Of a DNA stretch of 64,000 nucleotides, positions 2,151 to 63,316 are shown in pieces; position 1 is the first letter of the stretch; each line of letters opens with the position of its first letter. The position numbers and the translations under genes are program-made. This stretch comes from a virus. The stretch lies in IMG/VR virus record IMGVR_UViG_3300045988_154277. The stretch is one strand, 5' to 3'. The notes under the pieces are model-generated. The model was given only the letters and a program-made list of their open reading frames with translations. It was not told where the DNA came from and ran no database searches.

Positions 2151-4244
2151 TCAGAAATACTCCTTCAGCTTGCGAAAATCGAATGGTGTGAACTGCTGTG
2201 CTTTCGAAGCTTGTTGTTTCACTTGGTCAGCACTGATCAGGTTATCATCGACCAACTTATCGTCTACCAAAGACTCTAAGTGTCGCAGTTCACGTTCATA
2301 CGATGTCTTCACCATAGCGTTGGAAGTGCCCAAGATCAATCCTTTTAACTCTCCGATCCTCTCACGGATCTTAAGCTGTCTACTCTTCGCTTCTGGATCC
2401 ACATGCTCTCCTTCCAGGTTCACTCCTTTCAGGACTTCTCCTTTGGGGATCCCATACAAGTGGTGGTTCTTACCATAAAGAGCGAAGAAACACGTTAACA
2501 ACCAAGCGATCACCATATCGTCATGGGATCCGATCGGATGGTCAACACGTCCATTCCTCACAGTAAGTGATTTGATTTCACTTGCCAAATCAGCATCAAA
2601 CAACCGGTTTGCCATGTACTGAAGACTGGTGATCAATACACGCCCATAGAGGATATTACGACTATCCTGACTGCTGGTGGTGTTGAACCCGAAGTGCTTA
2701 CGTTTGGTTCCATCTCCGATGTCGATCTGACTGATATCCAAGAACCCATCGCTTCCATCTTGGAAATAGGTATTATAGATCCGATAGAACGGGTTGATCC
2801 TCTTCTTGATCATCATGTCGATCAGAAGATCGATCATGAACGCTCCGTTCTTATTACGTTCTGGGATCAGGATACTGTTCGGTAGCATATCCATCAACTC
2901 TGCGATACACGATGCGACATTTACCAAGTTAGTAACGTTACACTTACACGTTGCTACCACAGAGAGATCCAATGGATCAGAGATCACCAATGTAGTATTA
3001 TCACGTCCTACGTTGTCCGAAGTATCCAACCCGATCAGATAGTTCCTCTTGCGATTTTCATCATTCATCAGGATAGAACGTTTAACATACCAACGCACGA
3101 TCAACCCACCGTGTGTGGTGAACTCCGTAGGTTCGCAGATCGATGCGTTGAGGCGATTCAACAACTCGATAGGAACGATCGACTGTCCAGTACCCAACTG
3201 CCATTCGTTGAGATAGTCGACAGCCACCGTAATAGCATCTTTCCCATCGGACATCTCTTCCAACCACGCATCATCCTCTCCTAACTGTTTATAGGAGTAT
3301 TCGAGATACATCATCGTCTTGCCGCCCATCCCTCTCATCCACTCTCGAACAGCAGCAACGTCTTTAAGGTCATAAACACACTCGTTAAACCGTGCACTGT
3401 TGGACTTCAGATGGAACGCATAAGCGCCTGCTGGGTCGTTGAGCATACCTGCCGTTGTAGTGAGGATGTTCGCAGAGGGGATCCCTCGTTCGAATGCCAT
3501 CTTCCTAGCGGTAGCACACGCACCTGTGGCAGATGGATACGACTTATGGTTGTTCACATAGTACGCCATCTCATCCCACCATTGTGAAGACGTGGTCTCA
3601 CCACGTCCCTGTCTTGCAGCACGACGCATATCCTGCTGAGCAACGAAGGATTTAACAGCATTCTTCAATCTACGATAAGTAACGTCTTCCTGGTTCTTGG
3701 TGTCGTTCTTATAATCGACAAGGTACTCAGGAAGACTGTTACGGATCTCCTTGATACGTTTAATGTTCTCAGAACGAAGACTATCGTCCTTCGCGAAGAT
3801 CCCGATAGTGATGTTCTTAGCAGCTAAGAACTCCTCCCACGACAGGATACACACAACACCGATGGTCTTACCCTTCTGGCGAGGCATGGTTAAGAAGCTA
3901 TCGATGGAGTTCAAGAAACACCAGTTCAGAGCTAAGTTCGCTCTGGAGAACTGATAGTGGATCGGATCACCGCCAGGGGCAGGCACACGAATCACTTCTC
4001 TTAAGTAATACCAAGGGTTGACCTTACACTCATAAGCGATCCTCTGTCTTAGTTCTACAGAAGGATCCTTTAGATCGTAAGGGTCATATTTTTGGAGATC
4101 TGGTTGTGACAAGAACAAGAAGAACTTATTGTTCTTGATCCCCATATCCTTCAGGATACGATACATACGGAAACAAGAAGCATTCGTCGTGTTCGTATCC
4201 AAAATACCACTGTGAGTATTATAATCATCTAAGAATAGTAGCAT
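2151..4244 (-). CDS. terL: terminase large subunit (T4 gp17-like)
   Basis: Walker A segment MPRQKGKTIGVVCILSWEEF...PEYL parallels T4 gp17 SRQLGKTTVVAIFLAHF...PDFL; C-terminal nuclease-domain motif HPIGSHDDMVIAWL resembles gp17 EEGYHDDLVMSL. Confidence 0.9.
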   Translation of the reverse strand: MLLFLDDYNTHSGILDTNTTNASCFRMYRILKDMGIKNNKFFLFLSQPDLQKYDPYDLKDPSVELRQRIAYECKVNPWYYLREVIRVPAPGGDPIHYQFSRANLALNWCFLNSIDSFLTMPRQKGKTIGVVCILSWEEFLAAKNITIGIFAKDDSLRSENIKRIKEIRNSLPEYLVDYKNDTKNQEDVTYRRLKNAVKSFVAQQDMRRAARQGRGETTSSQWWDEMAYYVNNHKSYPSATGACATARKMAFERGIPSANILTTTAGMLNDPAGAYAFHLKSNSARFNECVYDLKDVAAVREWMRGMGGKTMMYLEYSYKQLGEDDAWLEEMSDGKDAITVAVDYLNEWQLGTGQSIVPIELLNRLNASICEPTEFTTHGGLIVRWYVKRSILMNDENRKRNYLIGLDTSDNVGRDNTTLVISDPLDLSVVATCKCNVTNLVNVASCIAELMDMLPNSILIPERNKNGAFMIDLLIDMMIKKRINPFYRIYNTYFQDGSDGFLDISQIDIGDGTKRKHFGFNTTSSQDSRNILYGRVLITSLQYMANRLFDADLASEIKSLTVRNGRVDHPIGSHDDMVIAWLLTCFFALYGKNHHLYGIPKGEVLKGVNLEGEHVDPEAKSRQLKIRERIGELKGLILGTSNAMVKTSYERELRHLESLVDDKLVDDNLISADQVKQQASKAQQFTPFDFRKLKEYF

Positions 4245-5855: not shown

Positions 5856-5873
5856 GTTATATATACTTGAAAA
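5856..5873 (-). promoter_or_regulatory. promoter-like motif (sense: TTTCAAGTATATATAAC)
   Basis: recurrent motif about 65 nt upstream of the ATG of gene 5245-5793, directly after a terminator. Confidence 0.5.
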
Positions 5874-15561: not shown

Positions 15562-15580
15562 GGTAATATATACTTGAAAC
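15562..15580 (-). promoter_or_regulatory. promoter-like motif (sense: GTTTCAAGTATATATTACC)
   Basis: recurrent motif. Confidence 0.5.
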
Positions 15581-31898: not shown

Positions 31899-31917
31899 TT
31901 TAGTTATATATAGGTGA
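31899..31917 (-). promoter_or_regulatory. promoter-like motif (sense: CACCTATATATAACTAAA)
   Basis: recurrent motif about 88 nt upstream of the ATG at 31815. Confidence 0.5.
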
Positions 31918-39900: not shown

Positions 39901-40662
39901 TCACCTCCTTGTTCGATGTTGACTGATATGTGTGTTGATGATCGTCTGGTGAAGGAGTAACATGCTACCCAGCATCTTGTTAGCTTGCGACTTCACCTTC
40001 GGATCTTGTTCGATCTTCTTGGTGACGACAGCCAGATAGATACTGGCTACATACCGCACACTGTCCAAGGCGTACTCCAGATACTTCTTACCTACATATC
40101 GTTCATCTTTCGCCGTTGTTGAGATGATCAACTGTAGTTTACGAAGTAGATCCAACGGATCATACAACATGATAGACATACGAGCGTAACGATCGCTGCT
40201 TAATGCAAATGATTGGATCACACTGATCAACGTTGAACTCCGGTTGGGATGAAGTGGATACCACTTCGTCTCCATCAACGCGAACAGTGGCATCATCAAC
40301 ATCAAGTTGATCCCACACTCGTGCTTCTCAATACGTAATATATACGTGAGAATCTGATAGACTAACGGGGGAGCTGGCATCTCCCCCAAGATCAGAGCGT
40401 CCACCAGTTGCCTGGTGGAACGTTCTTCCAAGAACCGCATACGAACACATCCGATCCGGAACAACTGTCCTGCCATGAACAGCTCCTCAGGAGAGGCACC
40501 ACCTCCCTTGTTGTAAGGATCTCGAACGATACAAGATACTTTCGCAAGGTACTTGAAGAATGGTTCTAACTCTACGAGAGGAGGATCATCCTTATTTGTA
40601 GTATCGATCAACCAGGCTTGGAACCTGGCGATCTCAGATGTGTCGAGATCACATCGTTTCAC
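39901..40662 (-). CDS. hypothetical protein (253 aa)
   Basis: ORF; start overlaps the stop of the topoisomerase ORF. Confidence 0.55.
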   Translation of the reverse strand: MKRCDLDTSEIARFQAWLIDTTNKDDPPLVELEPFFKYLAKVSCIVRDPYNKGGGASPEELFMAGQLFRIGCVRMRFLEERSTRQLVDALILGEMPAPPLVYQILTYILRIEKHECGINLMLMMPLFALMETKWYPLHPNRSSTLISVIQSFALSSDRYARMSIMLYDPLDLLRKLQLIISTTAKDERYVGKKYLEYALDSVRYVASIYLAVVTKKIEQDPKVKSQANKMLGSMLLLHQTIINTHISQHRTRR

Positions 40663-43600
40663 AGGACCTCCTGTTCTGGTATTTGGTTCAAGATACTCTT
40701 CACATCACCAAGAACCAACGCTTTACGAGGTGCGGTATCCACGCCCATCATGTCGTAGATACGATTCACATCCCCGATACTCGTGATCGTGGTGAATGTG
40801 CGTGTTGCAGGATCCAAACAGGTGTACTTCAACTGAGGACCACTGCATTCACCGAGACCTTTCAGACGGTGAACAGGATAGTGTTCGTCGAGTTTCTGGA
40901 GGATCCGATAGAGCTGCATGAACGTCATGGGTGCTCGTTCCATCTCCGTTGTTGTTTTGGTTGTCACCAGGAGATCGAACAACTCCCAATGAACCATCTC
41001 CAACTCAGGAAGGATGTAAGAACGGATCTCTTGAACCAAGTTCTGCATCGGAACACTGATCTCGATCCCTGCTACCGACAACAAGAGTGTCTTCGCTCCA
41101 GGATGATACGAACAATCATCCAGTTTCAGGATGTTCTTCACCATCTTGGTATCCAACTTGTACAAACTCAGATAGTCCACACAGTGAACCAACTGTTCCA
41201 GTACCATCGGATCGATCACCAACTTGTTCGCAGAACGGGTGATGATCCCACCGATCCTCTTGGTCAGGTAGATGAAATCCCGATACTGTTCTCCTTTCAG
41301 TTGACACAGATTCTTGGTCATCTGAGAGTAGAGTTCCAGATTGAAGAACTTCTCATAGATCTTGACACGGGCATCGTTCAGGGCTTTCTGGTCTCTCAAG
41401 AAGAGAGCTTTATCCCGACTTTCCATCACGTAGAGCGGAGGATTCGCCATGAACACACGTCCGCTTGCCAGGATCAAAGGATTGATCTTCAACAATGCAG
41501 TGATCACAAGGTCGTTGATGTGATAACCGTCAGGGTCAGCATCTGCCAGGATCCCGATCCTTGCGAACCGCAATCTGCTCAGATCTTGATCTCTCGGTCC
41601 AACCCCCAGGATCTTCACAAGATCTTGGTAGACTTTGTTCGCTCTAAGATCCTCCACATTAGCAGTGTGTGCATTGATCGGTTTGCCTTTCAACTTGAGT
41701 ACTGCTTGGAAGTGTTTGAACCTCTCCTGAACCACGAAGTCTCCTGCGCTGTTACCCTCAGTGATGAACAGTTCCGTGATGGTCGGATCCGTCACACGTG
41801 CAGGCACATAACAACCTTCATTGTTCATGTCGTAAGCAAGGTTCTTCGAGTTGGAACTCAAGTTCATACTCTTATTGCTGAACTGAGCGAACTTCTTCAC
41901 AAGATCATCGTGGATGATGTTGAACATCTGTTCCCACACCCCATCCTGGATCGTATCGAAGTATGCATTCAGCATCTGACCGTAGATCTTCTCGAAATCG
42001 AGATCCTTGAATCCATGCTTCGTCTGACCTTCGTATGTTGCTCCTTTGTAAAACGCTCTGATATATCCGTAGAACGGAATATTGTAGAAGCGTTCGAAGA
42101 ATGTCATGATCTCATCATCGTCCTGATCGAGATATGGAGTCAATCGTTCTCTGATCTTCTCAAAGAAGACACTGAGATGTGAAGACTCTTTATCTTTGAT
42201 CTGTGTATCATTCACAGTGGCGATATAACCATTCTGACGATCACAGTTCTTGACCAGATGAACACTGATGTCACAGGCAAGCAACTTTGGGGATGTCACC
42301 TCTTGTTTCACCTCGAGATTCCAGAGAGGTTGCTCTGTGATATTGAATTTACCACGAACGTAATCTTCAGCTGAGATCATCATAGGTGTTTCGTAGATCA
42401 ATGTACCATGCTGTTTCTGGAAGTAATTCCACATGTCTTCATATGGTTTCTTGAACCAACTGTCAGGAAGAAGTTTATCTACCTGATAGATGTGGAACTT
42501 GGTATTGGTCTTGAATGCTCCGATGTAATCCACCAACTCGAATAGACGTTGTACTCCTTCCGTTGGGAAGAATGTATGAGTGTATCTCAAGATCGTGTCA
42601 TCTGGTTGATGTACTACGATAGTACCAACGGTCTCGCGAATACTATCAATTGGCTTCATCACTTCAGACTTCACCACGTTTCCTCGGTTGAGAGTCAACC
42701 CAGCGAAACCATCCAGTCTCTTTGTGATGGCCACAAACCGTTCTGAGATGGCGTTACTTGAAACAGCACCGACACCGAACTGTCCGATACTGTATTTATA
42801 AGCAGCACTATCTGCTTTGCCAGTTGAAAACGGTATCGTGAAAACATTCCGTAACTTCTCACAAGGGATACCTCTGCCGTGATCCAGTACAGCAATCTGG
42901 TAGGTAGTATCTCCCTTGAACAATATCACGTTGATGTGATAGATCCGATTTGGGTCGATGCTCTCGTCAACCGAGTTATCGATATACTCTTTTACGCACT
43001 GTATGTTAGCGTTTAGATTCGTCTTACCCATGAGCATACCCGCATTTCTACGGGTATGCTCCATGAAGGTGAATTCTCTAATGTCACTCGATGTGTAACT
43101 GTCCGTCATTTGTGATTCCTCCATAGTCGTACATGATAGCGATTGTACGTCGTTTTTAACTCGGTCAATATCTGGTAAATTCTCTATACCAAACATAACC
43201 ATAAGCTCATCTGTGGTGTACTTGTGTGTTGCGATTTTTGCACGTAGATCTTGTAGTTCTTCCTTGGTAAGAGGAGTTCTATTGTTTCTATCTGCAGCAT
43301 CATGTGCAGCTTTTAATGTCTTTGCACTCTCTCCCTTTCGGTACGGTACTTCATCTGTAGTGATGCATCGATAAATCATAGCTTCCGATTTATGCATCTT
43401 AGCGCTTAGTGTATTATACGTCCATCCGAGTTTATACATATCTCTTATGTAATAAACCTCGTCTTTGGAAAGAACATCACGTATTTTAACAGTCTTCCTA
43501 GTGCCCCGGACGTTCCTTACAGGATCACCCGGATCTAACGGATAAGTGATCCCATCCAATGCATTCGAAATGGTGTGTCGATCTACATTAAAGTACTCTG

Positions 43601-44264
43601 CTAGTTTCCAAATCTTCCACTTCTCCTTCCCATACAGTCGACGGATCTCTTTTACTTGATCACGATTTAACTTGCTATGATTTGAATTATAGTGTTTATC
43701 ACGATAACGATCAATATCAATAGCTTTATCAGATGTTGTCCGATAGTACGTCTCATTTACAGCAGTTGATATCAACGAACCCTGTACATTGAATTCTTCT
43801 GCAAGATCTTTAATGTGTTCTCCGGACAACACACGAATTTTAAGTTCAGTAACTTGATCGTTTGTTAACTTCGCCTGTGGGTGGGCTTCACCAGACAGCA
43901 TCAGACCCATACGGACAGCGTGATGTTTGTTCTCACTAGATGATACCCATTCCAGATTGGACACATCGTTGTTTTGAGGATTTCCATCAATGTGATTTAC
44001 TTCTCTAAGATTGGCAGGATTTGGAAGAAAAGTCCATGCAACCAAGCGATGTGGGCTTGTTAGGTGACGTGACCCATCTCGTTTCACAAACACACATTTC
44101 AAACGATTATGTTTGTCTGTAAAGTATTTGAGATCCGGTATAACAAACCCTCGTTTTTTAACATACTCAGGAGAATTAGCACCTGGTTTAATACGAACAT
44201 GACCGGTTGTACTAGCTTCATAAATTCCTTCATACCCTTTTACATCTTTCCAGTATTCATTCAT
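40659..44264 (-). CDS. in-frame fusion ORF: N-terminal HNH homing endonuclease (about 385 aa, nt about 43110-44264) plus GyrB-like DNA topoisomerase II ATPase/Toprim subunit (T4 gp39/gp60-like, about 815 aa, nt 40659-43109)
   Basis: HNH part: NUMOD4-like MNEYWKDVKGYEGIYEASTTGHVR, HNH_3 motif HIDGNPQNNDVSNLEW, NUMOD1-like helix-turn-helix repeats. Topo part: SDIREFTFMEHTRRNAGMLMG (T4 gp39 SDIEHIKKRSGMYIG), IDNSVDE, GHKL motif LDHGRGIP, Toprim KGLGE. Internal GGAGGAATCACAAATG RBS before Met405; no stop codon between the two parts. Confidence 0.75.
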   Translation of the reverse strand: MNEYWKDVKGYEGIYEASTTGHVRIKPGANSPEYVKKRGFVIPDLKYFTDKHNRLKCVFVKRDGSRHLTSPHRLVAWTFLPNPANLREVNHIDGNPQNNDVSNLEWVSSSENKHHAVRMGLMLSGEAHPQAKLTNDQVTELKIRVLSGEHIKDLAEEFNVQGSLISTAVNETYYRTTSDKAIDIDRYRDKHYNSNHSKLNRDQVKEIRRLYGKEKWKIWKLAEYFNVDRHTISNALDGITYPLDPGDPVRNVRGTRKTVKIRDVLSKDEVYYIRDMYKLGWTYNTLSAKMHKSEAMIYRCITTDEVPYRKGESAKTLKAAHDAADRNNRTPLTKEELQDLRAKIATHKYTTDELMVMFGIENLPDIDRVKNDVQSLSCTTMEESQMTDSYTSSDIREFTFMEHTRRNAGMLMGKTNLNANIQCVKEYIDNSVDESIDPNRIYHINVILFKGDTTYQIAVLDHGRGIPCEKLRNVFTIPFSTGKADSAAYKYSIGQFGVGAVSSNAISERFVAITKRLDGFAGLTLNRGNVVKSEVMKPIDSIRETVGTIVVHQPDDTILRYTHTFFPTEGVQRLFELVDYIGAFKTNTKFHIYQVDKLLPDSWFKKPYEDMWNYFQKQHGTLIYETPMMISAEDYVRGKFNITEQPLWNLEVKQEVTSPKLLACDISVHLVKNCDRQNGYIATVNDTQIKDKESSHLSVFFEKIRERLTPYLDQDDDEIMTFFERFYNIPFYGYIRAFYKGATYEGQTKHGFKDLDFEKIYGQMLNAYFDTIQDGVWEQMFNIIHDDLVKKFAQFSNKSMNLSSNSKNLAYDMNNEGCYVPARVTDPTITELFITEGNSAGDFVVQERFKHFQAVLKLKGKPINAHTANVEDLRANKVYQDLVKILGVGPRDQDLSRLRFARIGILADADPDGYHINDLVITALLKINPLILASGRVFMANPPLYVMESRDKALFLRDQKALNDARVKIYEKFFNLELYSQMTKNLCQLKGEQYRDFIYLTKRIGGIITRSANKLVIDPMVLEQLVHCVDYLSLYKLDTKMVKNILKLDDCSYHPGAKTLLLSVAGIEISVPMQNLVQEIRSYILPELEMVHWELFDLLVTTKTTTEMERAPMTFMQLYRILQKLDEHYPVHRLKGLGECSGPQLKYTCLDPATRTFTTITSIGDVNRIYDMMGVDTAPRKALVLGDVKSILNQIPEQEVL

Positions 44265-44294
44265 AATAACAACTCCAGTTAATAGTGTTTTCTT

Positions 44295-44314
44295 AGAGTT
44301 ATATATACGTGAAG
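44295..44314 (-). promoter_or_regulatory. promoter-like motif (sense: CTTCACGTATATATAACTCT)
   Basis: recurrent motif about 40 nt upstream of the MNEYW start. Confidence 0.5.
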
Positions 44315-44372
44315 TTACCACGAAACAAAAAGAGAAGGTATGGTGGATTTTGTATCCACCATACCTTGTGTG

Positions 44373-45398
44373 TTAGAACGTTCTACTTCCGTATTCGATC
44401 ACATTCCATTTCTTCATAAGTTCTCTCAACGAGTACTTATTCGATGCGATATCCTCCCTTAACAGCATCAGTTCTTCTTTCGTGAATGGGACTCTATTAC
44501 GAGTCAATTGACTATTATGTTCTTCGATCAATTTGCGAACAGAATCACCATTCGAAAATGGAACCTCATCCGTAAATAACGCACGTTGCAACACACTGTA
44601 GTTACCAATATCAACCCAATGTATGATGCTTGATATACGTGCACCTCTACGATACGCATCCCGTATCTTAATAACTGTATCTTCAGACACAAGCTTAGTT
44701 AACGGGATGTGTGCGTTAGGAGATTTCAAGAATCGAATCGGTGTATCCGGTGTGATATCGTACGTTATACCACCAAGAAGATGTGACACTGTAGGAGCAT
44801 TCACATTCATTAGAGTAGATATAGCCGTTACACTATACCCGTGATCGAAGTAAAGAGATCTGATTCTACGTACATCTTCGTTTGTGAAAATGGAGCTTTG
44901 GTGATCTACTCCTGATTGTTTCACATGCAGTTTGGTACCCTCTTTACCCTCAAAACATGCACGCTGTTTCAATATGATCCCATTCACACCACTCAGACCG
45001 ATATTGAACTCTTCAGCAAGAGACTTCATCGATTCTCCTTTATGATAGCGTAAATAGATCTCGATGTCTTTAGAGCGACTGACCATTGTCATACCAGAAT
45101 CAGAAGGATCGTTAGACCAACTGAGATTGGATAACTGACAATTACTGTGATCGTAATCCTTATATCGGACATACAAACCATCACTACCAACAAAGTGACG
45201 TAGCACCAATCTCGATACGGGAGCGGTCTTCCATTCACCTTTGTCATTAACCATGTTCACAAACATGGACAAGCAGTTGTGATTCTTATGCTGCGGTAAA
45301 ATGCGATCTCCCTTTTTACGATGTCTCCTAACACGTCCGAGATTAGACACCTCGTACTTCGAGAATCCTTCTATAGACACCCAACGTTCTTCTTCCAT
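44373..45398 (-). CDS. HNH-family homing endonuclease paralog (341 aa), catalytic motif possibly degenerate
   Basis: WVSIEGFSKYEVSNLGRVRR (NUMOD4-like); helix-turn-helix repeats; C-terminus paralogous to the HNH part of the downstream fusion (..TDEVPF..G.S...L...H.......R.P.TKEEL..LR..IA..KY...EL). Confidence 0.7.
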   Translation of the reverse strand: MEEERWVSIEGFSKYEVSNLGRVRRHRKKGDRILPQHKNHNCLSMFVNMVNDKGEWKTAPVSRLVLRHFVGSDGLYVRYKDYDHSNCQLSNLSWSNDPSDSGMTMVSRSKDIEIYLRYHKGESMKSLAEEFNIGLSGVNGIILKQRACFEGKEGTKLHVKQSGVDHQSSIFTNEDVRRIRSLYFDHGYSVTAISTLMNVNAPTVSHLLGGITYDITPDTPIRFLKSPNAHIPLTKLVSEDTVIKIRDAYRRGARISSIIHWVDIGNYSVLQRALFTDEVPFSNGDSVRKLIEEHNSQLTRNRVPFTKEELMLLREDIASNKYSLRELMKKWNVIEYGSRTF

Positions 45399-45441
45399 GA
45401 TACTATCCTCCTAAGTTAAGTTCTATTCACGTATCATTACA

Positions 45442-45460
45442 GAGTAATATATACTTCAAA
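45442..45460 (-). promoter_or_regulatory. promoter-like motif (sense: TTTGAAGTATATATTACTC)
   Basis: recurrent motif about 45 nt upstream of the ATG at 45398. Confidence 0.5.
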
Positions 45461-45483
45461 TAGGCTTCATTTACAGTAAGACG

Positions 45484-45518
45484 GACCTATCTGGTTGGTT
45501 ATCCCAACCAGATAGGTC
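45484..45518. terminator. 15-bp perfect hairpin in a divergent intergenic region
   Basis: gacctatctggttgg-ttatc-ccaaccagataggtc. Confidence 0.45.
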
Positions 45519-45741
45519 ACATACAGGAGAGAGTGTGAACGACTAGGAACATCAACCCAAGAACCATTCCTAAAGCTCCCTAAACCAAAAGAAAGGATGG
45601 TGTATCGCTACACCTGTTTCTAGGTCGTTTCACATAGGATGTGCACCGTAGAGCAGAACCCCCTGAAACACAGGGATATGCTATGACAGATCCCTGCTGT
45701 AGCAAGGACAAATTACGGTGAAATCAACTAGGAGATTTAAT

Positions 45742-46197
45742 ATGGCTGAAGAAGTACAATCGTCTCCGATCGATATGTTGTTCCAGGAGTTCAATCAAGC
45801 AACCCGTGAAACGGATCAGATCCGTGATCAGATCATACAACAACTTGTGAACTCGGTGCCATCGATCAATTATGACAAAGACAGCGCACGCGACATCGAA
45901 GTGAAGATGGGTGTGATCAAAACACTTGATGATATCCTGAAGTCGAAGGAGTCATCTAAAGCGAACAAGATCACAACCTATTTGAAACGGAAGGATACTG
46001 AGAATACCGAGAACTATCAGGAAGCTGTTCTGGCAGTGCTTAGTAACTTGGATCCCGAACAGTTTCGCAAAGGTTCTGTTGCCCTTCAGAATAACGTGGA
46101 TGATCAACTTGAACATCAGTTCGAAGCGTCAGGACAATCACCGATCAAACCAGGTGAAACTGAGATCGACACTCCGATGTCAGTGGAAGAAGCATAA
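45742..46197 (+). CDS. hypothetical acidic protein (151 aa), plus strand
   Basis: TAGGAGATTTAATATG RBS; terminator follows. Confidence 0.6.
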   Translation: MAEEVQSSPIDMLFQEFNQATRETDQIRDQIIQQLVNSVPSINYDKDSARDIEVKMGVIKTLDDILKSKESSKANKITTYLKRKDTENTENYQEAVLAVLSNLDPEQFRKGSVALQNNVDDQLEHQFEASGQSPIKPGETEIDTPMSVEEA

Positions 46198-46953: not shown

Positions 46954-48606
46954 TTAGTTCAAAACGAACTTGTTGAGATCATCGATCTGATAAGTTGAGA
47001 TCTTCGTACCATGCATGCTCTTCAGAGCATCCGTGGTGAAGGTCGATGTGATATCCACTGCATCCAATGCAAGATGCTTCGCATTCTTCTTCGCATAGAT
47101 GTCGCCCATGCACATGTAACAGAGTCCATGTTGGGCTTGACAATACATCGGAGAACGCACCAAACATGTCTTACCGACGAACTTCTCCATGTTCTGTTCT
47201 GTAAGAAGAACCCAGTTCGAACCATCTTGGATATAGGAACCAAGATAACGTCCGATCTTGTACTTCGAGAAATCCACAGTAAGTCCACGTGTGGTGTGAC
47301 AGTCCTGTTCTGATACGGTAAGGTCCTGAAGAACACGGGTGATGCCTTTGGTTAGTGCACCGCCGAGTTTCGTCTGGTCACCACGGTTGAACGAACCTTT
47401 ACGGGTCTCGTTCGCCATAGCAGGCATCGTCTCTGCGGTCATCCCTTCGGACAGAGAGTTCGGAATAAACACGAAGTTCCCAGTTGTCTTGGAGAACTCT
47501 TCCACACCACCGACCGTCAGATACATCTTCTTACGGGAGATGTTGAAGGGTTTGTCACCGAGCGGCCCATAGAATCGCATCACTTCATCATCTTTGAGAT
47601 AGTTCTTATCCATCGCGATCAAGGTATTCTCGATCTCCATGATGACGTTCGGATCGTTCAACTTATCCTTGTACTTCTCCATCAACTCTTGTTTCACTTT
47701 CCTCACATTCGGATCTGTGGTAAGTGATTTACGAGTATAAGTCGGTACACAGAGTTCAGTGAAGTGTCCGATGAAGTAGAGATCGTTCACATATTGCTTA
47801 TATGCGGATACCGGGATAGAACCGTCCAACATACCTTTGGCAACGATCGTATCGATATAACCGAGATCAAATACGGAGTTCTGATAAGAGATCTTGTCTT
47901 GGAATGGATGAACCAGAAGAAGGTAGTTCAATAAGAACCGACCTACGGTGGTAATCATCTCTTCCTTGCAGTTGATGATCTCACCGGGATTCAGTTGGAA
48001 CGTATCGATCTCACCGAATGCTCTCTGGATCCCGTTGTCCAGGTAGTTCAATGTGAACGAATATGTCTCCTGATCGATATCCGAGACATACACCAGACAG
48101 GACTGACTGCTACCCACAACGGATGCCAAGAACACATCTCCTTCTTGCAAAACACATTTCTGGAAGTGTGTTGCGTTGTAATTCGCAGAGGTGTAGTAAT
48201 CGAAGAGCTCTTGGTTCGTCTTGTTGTAGAGGTCTTTGCTGAACTGATCTGCTTCTTCTTTCTTCTCTGGAGAGAGAGCAAGGTAGTTCCTATACTGGAA
48301 CAGAAGATGGAAAAGACTATCGTTGAACGGATACACCAGTGCGATTTGTCGCATCGCGATCTGTTTCAAAACTTCATCGTCTGTGATATCTTGCTCTTGC
48401 AGAGGAATATACACCGCATCTTCCGGAGGTGTCTTCAATGTAACACGAACAGAATGACGTTCCGGTGTGATCGCTTCGCTCTCATACAGAGGGAAAACAG
48501 GACGTCCACCAACCTGTGTCATGATGTCGATCAAAAATGCACGTTCTAACAGACGTCTCTGGTACTTGATCAAAAACTCTTTCTTATGGATCGGAAGTTC
48601 CATCAC
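46954..48606 (-). CDS. multisubunit RNA polymerase beta' subunit, C-terminal fragment (trigger-loop region) with phage-specific N-terminal domain
   Basis: [31 protein letters not shown] like E. coli beta' [82 protein letters not shown] like [58 protein letters not shown]. Confidence 0.8.
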   Translation of the reverse strand: [550 protein letters not shown]

Positions 48607-52142: not shown

Positions 52143-52162
52143 GTTGTAATATATACGTAAAG
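52143..52162 (-). promoter_or_regulatory. promoter-like motif (sense: TTTACGTATATATTACAAC)
   Basis: recurrent motif about 55 nt upstream of the ligase ATG. Confidence 0.5.
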
Positions 52163-63295: not shown

Positions 63296-63316
63296 CAAGT
63301 AATATATACGTGAAAT
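63296..63316 (-). promoter_or_regulatory. promoter-like motif (sense: TTTCACGTATATATTACTTG)
   Basis: recurrent motif after a terminator; precedes a 450-nt region with few ORFs. Confidence 0.5.

Follow-up and report, generated by a model that had tools for sequence, protein, structure and literature searches.

In the open reading frames (ORFs) of mitochondrial group I introns, the endonuclease is translated in one polypeptide with the upstream exon. Phages also carry free-standing HNH endonucleases, which home with co-conversion, are found next to or within essential phage genes and frequently carry frameshifts (PMC2988022; PMC10448857), and nuclease genes mark the borders of genetic exchange (PMC10448857). 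MobA of coliphage T4 targets the gene for the large subunit of topoisomerase II (bioRxiv 10.1101/2022.08.31.505936), and it is polymorphic and decaying among relatives (bioRxiv 10.1101/2022.08.31.505936; PMC2988022). MobE is inserted in the nrdA gene of Aeromonas phage Aeh1, and sequence that arose through its insertion is part of the host polypeptides (PMC3045599). Here we describe a locus in a 64,000-nucleotide stretch of viral DNA (IMG/VR record IMGVR_UViG_3300045988_154277, hereafter the window) in which a gene for an HNH endonuclease, which we call HEG2, is continuous with the gene for a B-type subunit of topoisomerase II. We consider it probable that HEG2 is a mobile and partly decaying free-standing cassette, situated in the 5' untranslated region (5'UTR) of the topoisomerase gene, whose ORF lacks a stop codon and reads into that gene.

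An endonuclease frame continuous with a topoisomerase gene

The fusion ORF (40659..44264; positions are those of the window, and all features of the fusion locus are on the minus strand unless stated otherwise) is uninterrupted and comprises 1201 codons from an ATG at 44264. Its first 385 amino acids (43110..44264) are the HEG2 coding part, with a NUMOD4-like N-terminus, an HNH_3 nuclease, four helix-turn-helix (HTH) modules and a disordered tail. The remainder (40659..43109) is a topoisomerase II B-type subunit of 816 amino acids with its native Met, and it has the domain order of the type IIA topoisomerase B subunit, namely GHKL ATPase, Toprim and GyrB C-terminal domain. Pfam profiles matched within amino acids 1-385 were NUMOD4 (3-28), HNH_3 (88-113) and HTH, and those matched in the topoisomerase part were HATPase_c (422-509), Toprim (831-939) and DNA_gyraseB_C (1128-1182), all above cut-off. 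The topoisomerase part is also assigned to PHROG 543, "DNA topoisomerase II large subunit" (E 7e-66), and shows approximately 27% identity to the gyrB-like genes of AR9, PBS1 and S6. The longest reading of the frame in the ORF listing, 40659..44321, begins at a GTG that lies upstream of the promoter-like motif described below, and use of this extension is unlikely. An ORF of 514 amino acids on the plus strand opposite the topoisomerase gene (40638-42182) is most likely a shadow ORF of the coding strand. For annotation, these results mean that the 1201-amino acid "gyrase B" entries found in databases are chimeras, and that the true subunit has 816 residues.

There is no stop codon at the junction, where the codons are ACG ACT ATG GAG GAA TCA CAA ATG ACG GAC and the encoded peptide reads ...SCTTMEESQMTDSYTSSDIR.... 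An internal Shine-Dalgarno (SD) sequence, GGAGGA (43117..43122), is located 7 nt ahead of the topoisomerase ATG (43109-43107), and its GGAG is kept in all three of the fusion lineages described below despite their differing linker amino acids. The Met at 43109 matches the native start of the topoisomerase, as the ten unfused orthologues (807-818 amino acids) begin 12-13 residues before an invariant FTFMEH. Between the last helix of HEG2 and this Met is a linker of 27 codons (43110..43190), of fixed length but low conservation and predicted to be disordered, whose final codons are probably former 5'UTR. An AlphaFold model was made for residues 1-785 and was used for local confidence alone, the overall predicted template modelling score being only 0.35. 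In this model residues 1-120 have predicted local distance difference test (pLDDT) values of 83-93, the four HTH modules are of moderate confidence with helices up to residue 357, and residues 357-390 fall below a pLDDT of 50 and are without secondary structure, so that the endonuclease and topoisomerase parts, as modelled, look like beads on a string. A reading of this DNA made from the sequence alone (the sequence-only reading) had described a NUMOD4/HNH/HTH gene in frame with a GyrB-like topoisomerase, with no stop codon and with an internal ribosome-binding site (RBS), and our analysis confirms that description at the coordinates it gave.

The fusion was seen in about 30 independent gut-metagenome contigs. 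The 1201-amino acid protein, identical or with 1-19 substitutions, is present in many independent assemblies (P0001-P0009), and the junction peptide is identical in P0001-P0016, which derive from different samples and assemblers. A second fusion lineage (P0017/L005/L065/L066) encodes a protein of 1203 amino acids whose endonuclease is 82% identical to that of the window in its core and 80% identical over the whole 385-amino acid part; for a third lineage (P0018/L006), with a protein of 1200 amino acids, the corresponding values are 60% and 58%. The junction frame is also open in P0285. The same open junction thus recurs in independent assemblies and in two diverged lineages, which rules out an error; the stop or frameshift by sequencing error that the sequence-only reading had considered at this position is effectively refuted. 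In all three lineages the linker has the same length and is free of stop codons, with amino acid identities of 30-52% and a ratio of nonsynonymous to synonymous differences (pN/pS) of 0.4-0.7. A separate HEG2 ORF with its own stop codon was sought among relatives through protein, locus and exhaustive searches, and none was found. The window phage itself is uncultivated, and its relatives are contigs of 260-281 kb assembled from human gut metagenomes; a megablast search of 40000-46000 against 50,697 phage records returned no matches, this phage group being absent from INPHARED. The window also contains a multisubunit RNA polymerase beta-like gene (46954-48606).

Several lines of comparison indicate that HEG2 is an HNH homing endonuclease of the HNH_3/I-HmuI-like type, for which site-specific cleavage is predicted. 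Its HNH motif, EVNHIDGNPQNNDVSNLEWVSSSEN (43926..44003, amino acids 88-113), keeps the catalytic His and Asn residues and scores 30.3 bits against a Pfam HNH_3 cut-off of 24.8. HEG2 also matches PHROG families of HNH endonucleases, and its phmmer match to I-HmuI (PDB 1U3E) has an E value of 1.7e-9. In this alignment His75, Asn87 and Asn96 of I-HmuI correspond to H91, N103 and N112 of HEG2 (VNHIDGN..NLEW..EN), while Asp74 of I-HmuI is Asn in HEG2. The DNA-binding modules are separate, being recognized as NUMOD4 and HTH in Pfam and as four helical modules in the model. The same architecture occurs in P0124 (35% identity), the nearest free-standing relative with the full architecture that was found. 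With a GC content at third codon positions (GC3) of 0.32, against 0.50-0.60 in backbone genes, HEG2 is compositionally foreign to the phage backbone. Between the three fusion lineages the endonuclease core has a pS of 0.76-0.87, which is saturated, and a pN of 0.11-0.30, giving pN/pS values of 0.14-0.35. Since pN has remained low while synonymous sites have become saturated, the nuclease has been maintained by selection for a long time.

Wider searches added little to this family. A scan of IMG/VR with the endonuclease alignment recovered only distant relatives of the N-terminal domain, and a word-indexed search together with an exhaustive search of 1.84 billion representatives gave no further fused lineages and no close stop-terminated orthologues. 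The top matches of the word-indexed search (P0033-P0040) were considered as HEG2 orthologues and rejected, as they are double NUMOD4-HNH proteins in which the C-terminal half is not orthologous. Two database proteins from outside the window, P0070 and P0117, consist of a C-terminal fragment of ThyX followed by NUMOD4-HNH-NUMOD.

Empty sites, co-conversion and decay of HEG2

The presence or absence of HEG2 at one and the same site distinguishes genomes that are otherwise nearly identical: the window from L001, L002 and L058, and, in the second lineage, L066 from L062. In L001, whose topoisomerase gene shares 99% identity with that of the window, the locus consists of a related upstream gene (paralog 1, discussed below), a 135-bp spacer and a topoisomerase gene of 816 codons, with HEG2 absent. 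Paralog 1 is likewise the only endonuclease-type gene in L002-4, L055 and L058, and is frameshifted in L059/L061; paralog 1 and the fusion occur together in the window, L008/L060, L063/L064, L009 and L010; the fusion occurs without paralog 1 in L065/L066; and L007, L056, L057 and L062 have no endonuclease gene at all. All empty-site alleles, whether from the near-identical L001, from strains of the same species (L002-4, L058, L059) or from more distant genomes (L007, L056, L057, L062), start the topoisomerase at the same Met. The sequence-only reading had proposed that an endonuclease invaded the 5' edge of an essential gene and had suggested comparing the insertion site with related topoisomerase genes; that comparison, with empty sites and a conserved leader in L001 and in more distant relatives, bears the proposal out, "essential" being an assumption.

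Every empty allele has the promoter-like motif (C)GTATATATAAC followed by a leader ending in GAACATAYNNAAWMMAACCATNNTCTACATAGGAGG. The core of this 5'UTR is 36 nt long (L001:1421-1456, with equivalents in L002, L007, L056 and L057) and has the form GAACATAY..AACCAT..TCTACATAGGAGG. Among endonuclease-free haplotypes it is 83-100% identical with no insertions or deletions, whereas the next 400 coding nt are only 67-79% identical, which suggests that the leader has a regulatory role. It is missing from the window, and it is likely to be the homing target. In occupied alleles, homology to the empty alleles ends at approximately 44291-44283, shortly past the promoter motif, and returns at the SD sequence; 44283..44291 is accordingly the left boundary of the cassette, and HEG2 has an SD sequence of its own, GGAG, at 44274-44277. 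Read in the topoisomerase frame of L001, the native cATAGGAGG contains a TAG whose counterpart in the aligned linker is ATG in the window and L005 or AAG in L006, and it is plausible from this alignment, if unproven, that the endonuclease once had a stop codon that was lost.

The promoter-like motif of the window, CACGTATATATAAC (44298..44311), is conserved upstream of the topoisomerase in all alleles. In the form CA[CA]GTATATAT[AT]AC it has seven copies in the window against 0.42 expected, all on the minus strand, which is the coding strand (5856-5869, 15563-15576, 31903-31916, 40335-40348, 44298-44311, 52146-52159 and 63299-63312), and it is probably the promoter consensus of the phage. As HEG2 lies between this motif and the topoisomerase start, its co-transcription with the topoisomerase gene is probable. 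The same spacer has also received another kind of gene. In L055 a 417-amino acid TnpB/IS605-OrfB-type gene (L055:2673-3926, plus strand), with Cas12f1-like TNB, OrfB_IS605 and HTH_OrfB_IS605 domains, is situated between paralog 1 and the topoisomerase, where it has displaced promoter-proximal sequence, so that this spacer is a hot spot for mobile elements of unrelated kinds.

Sequence comparison further indicates that HEG2 is a mobile cassette which has spread horizontally with co-conversion of the flanking topoisomerase sequence. L008 and the window are 75-90% identical across the locus, with a background of about 80-85%, and only 59% identical (nucleotide) in paralog 1, but from 44296 to about 42100 they are 98-100% identical, a shared block that comprises HEG2 and the first ~1 kb of the topoisomerase gene. 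Conversely, the identity of L002, L055, L058 and L059 to the window, 97-100% elsewhere, falls to 59-82% in the first ~900 bp of the topoisomerase gene. The second lineage gives a similar picture: between occupied L066 and empty L062, identity is 96-100% in the flanks and 58-84% over the initial 600 bp of the topoisomerase gene, and the P0017 cluster holds both 1203-amino acid and 816/817-amino acid forms. Such patterns are classical for homing with co-conversion (PMC2988022) and for nuclease genes that border exchanged DNA (PMC10448857). In the window the co-conversion tract, or haplotype block travelling with HEG2, is placed at 42150..43109, the first ~900-950 bp of the topoisomerase gene, which is foreign in comparison with sister strains. 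More generally, the first 600-900 bp of the gene, encoding the ATPase domain (~42150-43109 in the window), exist as many haplotypes of ~60-75% mutual identity that are shuffled among backbones of 92-100% identity. A fixed distant cleavage site at ~42150, which the ends of the window/L002 and window/L008 tracts had suggested, was rejected, as the tracts of other pairs end anywhere between 600 and 1000 bp.

HEG2 is also decaying. An A6 run in codons 36-37 (44154..44159) occurs naturally as A5, A6 and A7, of which A5 and A7 frameshift HEG2; A5 is found in L008, L060, L063 and L064, on two different backbones, and A7 in L009. In L010 a different lesion, deletion of G44000, lies one codon before the catalytic His. 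These three lesions, all within the window-type population, are independent of one another. Early frameshifts affect roughly one third of the occupied alleles by contig counts, and genomes assembled from several different samples contain them. Ribosomes starting at the endonuclease ATG would stop in such alleles after 54 or 88 codons, and their topoisomerase must therefore come from an internal start. From these alleles, the 816-amino acid product of the internal SD sequence appears to be the functional form and the full fusion appears to be dispensable. The occurrence of A5 on two backgrounds implies either recurrent mutation or the transfer of an already broken endonuclease. Slippage on the A run as programmed recoding was considered and is unlikely, as runs of A5-A7 are too short and the alleles differ in their DNA. 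The sequence-only reading had seen the gene as possibly moving toward domestication, which our results do not support: HEG2 is polymorphic in two lineages, was recently transferred between diverged backbones, has foreign GC3 and is frameshifted in about a third of its alleles.

The upstream paralog

Paralog 1 (44373..45398, minus strand) encodes 341 amino acids with NUMOD4 and HTH modules, and aligns over its full length with the first 385 amino acids of the fusion (28% identity, E 2e-32). The Pfam scan of the window copy found NUMOD4 and HTH with no HNH_3 match, and HNH_3 is below cut-off in all paralog 1 alleles (20.2 bits against 24.8 for that of L055). In all three allelic forms Tyr replaces the catalytic His (VRYKD, IRYKD, VYYKD), and the region of Asn96 is deleted. 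By these residues paralog 1 is best described as a nuclease-dead homolog rather than an active HNH member, and the alignment with I-HmuI agrees with the earlier observation that, of two related HNH-type genes, only the fused one has an intact catalytic motif.

Paralog 1 is its own transcription unit upstream of the topoisomerase promoter. It is preceded by a strong SD sequence (45406-45412, minus strand) and by promoter-like GAAGTATATATTAC (45444-45457, minus strand), a copy of the motif described above with three mismatches, and the unit ends in a terminator-like hairpin with a 14-bp stem followed by a T tract (44325..44367, minus strand). The three allelic forms, found in otherwise near-identical phages, share 51-53% amino acid identity, with a pN of 0.32-0.34 and a pS of 0.68-0.80. 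The gene is missing from L007, L056, L057, L062 and L065/66 (more distant relatives and the second lineage) and is split by a frameshift in L059 and L061 (~2866-3854); in the other strains that carry it the gene is intact and, although it lacks the catalytic His, evolves under purifying selection. Paralog 1 therefore represents an older and independent insertion: the inserted gene is related to HEG2, has lost its nuclease chemistry and is still constrained in most strains. Trans-homing has been described for I-TevIII and MobE (PMC2790892), and we can only speculate that paralog 1 is carried along in this way or that it serves as a DNA-binding protein. A resemblance between its C-terminus (Y[GT]SR) and the YTS at the N-terminus of the topoisomerase was considered as a relic of an older fusion and rejected, as it involves only three residues and the serine codon classes differ.

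Interpretation of the locus and comparison with known systems

We propose that an "intronless" cassette of the I-HmuI/Mob type homes into the topoisomerase 5'UTR of uncultivated 260-280 kb jumbo phages of the human gut. The empty allele would comprise the promoter motif, the 36-nt leader ending in TAGGAGG and the topoisomerase ATG; in the occupied allele the endonuclease ORF, equipped with a GGAG RBS of its own, would take the place of the leader and be transcribed from the topoisomerase promoter. This stop-less ORF would continue through a disordered linker of ~27 codons, ending in the former leader with its SD sequence, into the topoisomerase. Ribosomes that start at the endonuclease ATG would make an endonuclease-topoisomerase fusion of ~140 kDa, and those that start at the internal GGAGGA would make the normal 816-amino acid subunit, presumably the form on which the phage depends. 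During co-infection the endonuclease may cut or nick endonuclease-free alleles, with repair copying the cassette and 0.2-1 kb of adjoining topoisomerase 5' coding sequence. The stop-less fusion would be an old, inherited trait of this endonuclease lineage, an established endonuclease could then decay via frameshifts, and paralog 1 would represent a separate, older insertion upstream of the promoter that is now nuclease-dead. The alleles of the metagenomic population, which in two lineages include empty, occupied, transferred and decaying ones, form a natural time series, and these uncultivated gut jumbo phages offer a clean case in which to study homing, co-conversion and decay.

Some observations weigh against this proposal. 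L001 lacks HEG2 but has a topoisomerase 5' tract of the window type, most of the differences falling within the first ~180 bp, and the endonuclease-free L057 and L007 differ from each other by a mosaic 5' block; part of the mosaicism may therefore stem from recombination unrelated to HEG2. In a simple mutation simulation the joint chance of the linker staying open was about 0.05-0.09, and the open frame, constant length and near-neutral evolution of the linker are hints, suggestive but not decisive, that read-through has been selected rather than merely tolerated. The frameshifts could be homopolymer assembly errors, yet A5 is present in at least eight contigs and the deletion of G44000 is outside a homopolymer. 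Finally, it is from sequence that we infer where HEG2 would cut, that the internal start would be used and that a fusion protein would exist.

The low simulated chance, obtained for three lineages with saturated synonymous sites, together with the failure to find a stop-terminated copy in relatives, also speaks for an adaptive fusion, in which the nuclease would be tethered to the phage topoisomerase complex as a functional chimera, or translation of the endonuclease ORF would be a required "leader" for topoisomerase synthesis. The cassette wholly deletes an unusually conserved native leader, and the internal SD context CUAUGGAGG (43114-43125) pairs over 9 bp with CCUUCAUGG (43061-43071) in topoisomerase codons 14-17, a pairing that is also predicted in L005, is only about 5 bp in empty alleles, and could tie independent initiation to upstream translation. 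This hairpin is better than shuffled sequences in the window alone (z = -2.15), being not significant in L005 or L006; a second hairpin, sequestering the SD sequence of HEG2, was rejected as no better than shuffled sequence (z = +0.57). The cassette is polymorphic in two lineages, the early frameshifts in about one third of occupied contigs preclude a full fusion in genomes that were nevertheless assembled at full length, the internal SD sequence is conserved, and the model gives a disordered linker and does not predict that the two parts are integrated. On balance we regard an adaptive fusion as unlikely. It is similarly doubtful that the stop-less design was selected through a translational "addiction", in which topoisomerase expression, its leader deleted, would rely partly on translation of the selfish gene, or through a topoisomerase-tethered nuclease with a role in, for example, competition between co-infecting phages; if it were, this would be a previously undescribed way of integrating an endonuclease with a host gene without an intron or intein.

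The remaining alternatives fare considerably worse. An artefact of sequencing or assembly, with the endonuclease having its own stop, might be entertained because the window is a single assembly and homopolymer lengths differ elsewhere in the ORF, but nothing else speaks for it, and it is effectively refuted, and exceedingly improbable, given the identical junction peptide from different samples and assemblers and the open frame in L005/L065/L066, L006 and P0285 despite differences at most of their synonymous sites. Equally remote is a self-splicing element, whether intein or group I/II intron, that would resolve the fusion at the level of protein or RNA. HNH endonucleases of the I-HmuI type are intron-encoded in SPO1-like phages, and ThyX-fragment-HNH fusions typical of intron ORFs exist (P0070, P0117). 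HEG2, on the other hand, begins its ORF, with no N-extein or upstream exon; the Pfam scan of the fusion protein found no Hint/intein domain, in line with the sequence-only reading, which had argued against an intein for want of an N-extein; Rfam searches for group I/II introns on both strands of 42800-45700 gave no matches at E <= 1; and the empty alleles have the insert replacing an untranslated leader, not coding sequence. It is also very improbable that the two endonuclease-type genes arose by tandem duplication in place, as the term tandem paralogs in the sequence-only reading might imply, with the second copy joined to the topoisomerase by a small deletion and never mobile. The genes are adjacent, have the same orientation and have their whole architecture in common, but they are only 28% identical and lie on opposite sides of the promoter, with a terminator between them as well; the second lineage has the fused copy without paralog 1 and many strains have paralog 1 alone; and between backbones differing by 15-20% the fused copy has 99% identity, against no more than 59% (nucleotide) for paralog 1.

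A mobile cassette in the topoisomerase 5'UTR, the reading that we prefer, has counterparts among described systems. In the open-access literature we found no description of a free-standing phage endonuclease ORF on the N-terminus of a host gene with an internal RBS sparing the native product. I-HmuI of Bacillus phage SPO1 has the same NUMOD4-type beta domain followed by HNH, the same catalytic His and Asn and an elongated modular DNA-binding tail. It differs in being a protein of 174 amino acids, encoded in a group I intron of the DNA polymerase gene and ending at its own stop codon, whereas HEG2, of 385 amino acids and with four HTH modules, occupies a 5'UTR as a free-standing gene whose reading frame runs on into the host protein. 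The closest biological analogue is MobA of T4, a free-standing HNH endonuclease which resembles HEG2 at the level of the HNH motif and whose target is also a phage topoisomerase II (genes 39/60). Both place cassette-derived, in-frame sequence in the host protein, and both are polymorphic among relatives and often pseudogenized or lost. MobA, however, is inserted in the middle of its gene, which it splits, with an ORF in another frame ending at its own stop and with a 50-nt translational bypass, while HEG2 is upstream of the start codon, leaves the gene unsplit and is itself the N-terminal part of the ORF. The features of a MobA-type cassette, namely a split in the Toprim-coding region, tails in the form of C- and N-terminal extensions (CTE/NTE) and a bypass, were not found at this locus, where the topoisomerase ORF of 816 amino acids is uninterrupted.

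MobE is likewise a free-standing HNH endonuclease in a core replication-related gene that adds sequence to the host polypeptides, but there the gene is fragmented and the new tails are needed for assembly, and nothing in the HEG2 part indicates such a need. Intron ORFs, in organelles and in P0070/P0117, share with HEG2 the combination of endonuclease and host sequence in one polypeptide; in these the host exon comes first and the intron restores the host protein, whereas at the HEG2 locus the endonuclease comes first and the internal RBS restores it. The homing endonuclease gene (HEG) islands of vibriophage ICP1 (PMC10448857) are also variable among near-identical phages, have frameshifted alleles, lie beside essential genes and form the borders of exchanged DNA, but they belong to the T5orf172 and HNH-AP2 families, and translational fusion to a neighbour is unreported there. 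The known ways in which endonucleases neutralise their insertion are thus residence in introns or inteins, splitting of a gene into pieces that assemble, and a position between genes. HEG2 differs from all of these in occupying a 5'UTR, in forming one ORF with the host protein and in having the native product preserved by an internal RBS, an arrangement that has persisted through saturating sequence divergence.

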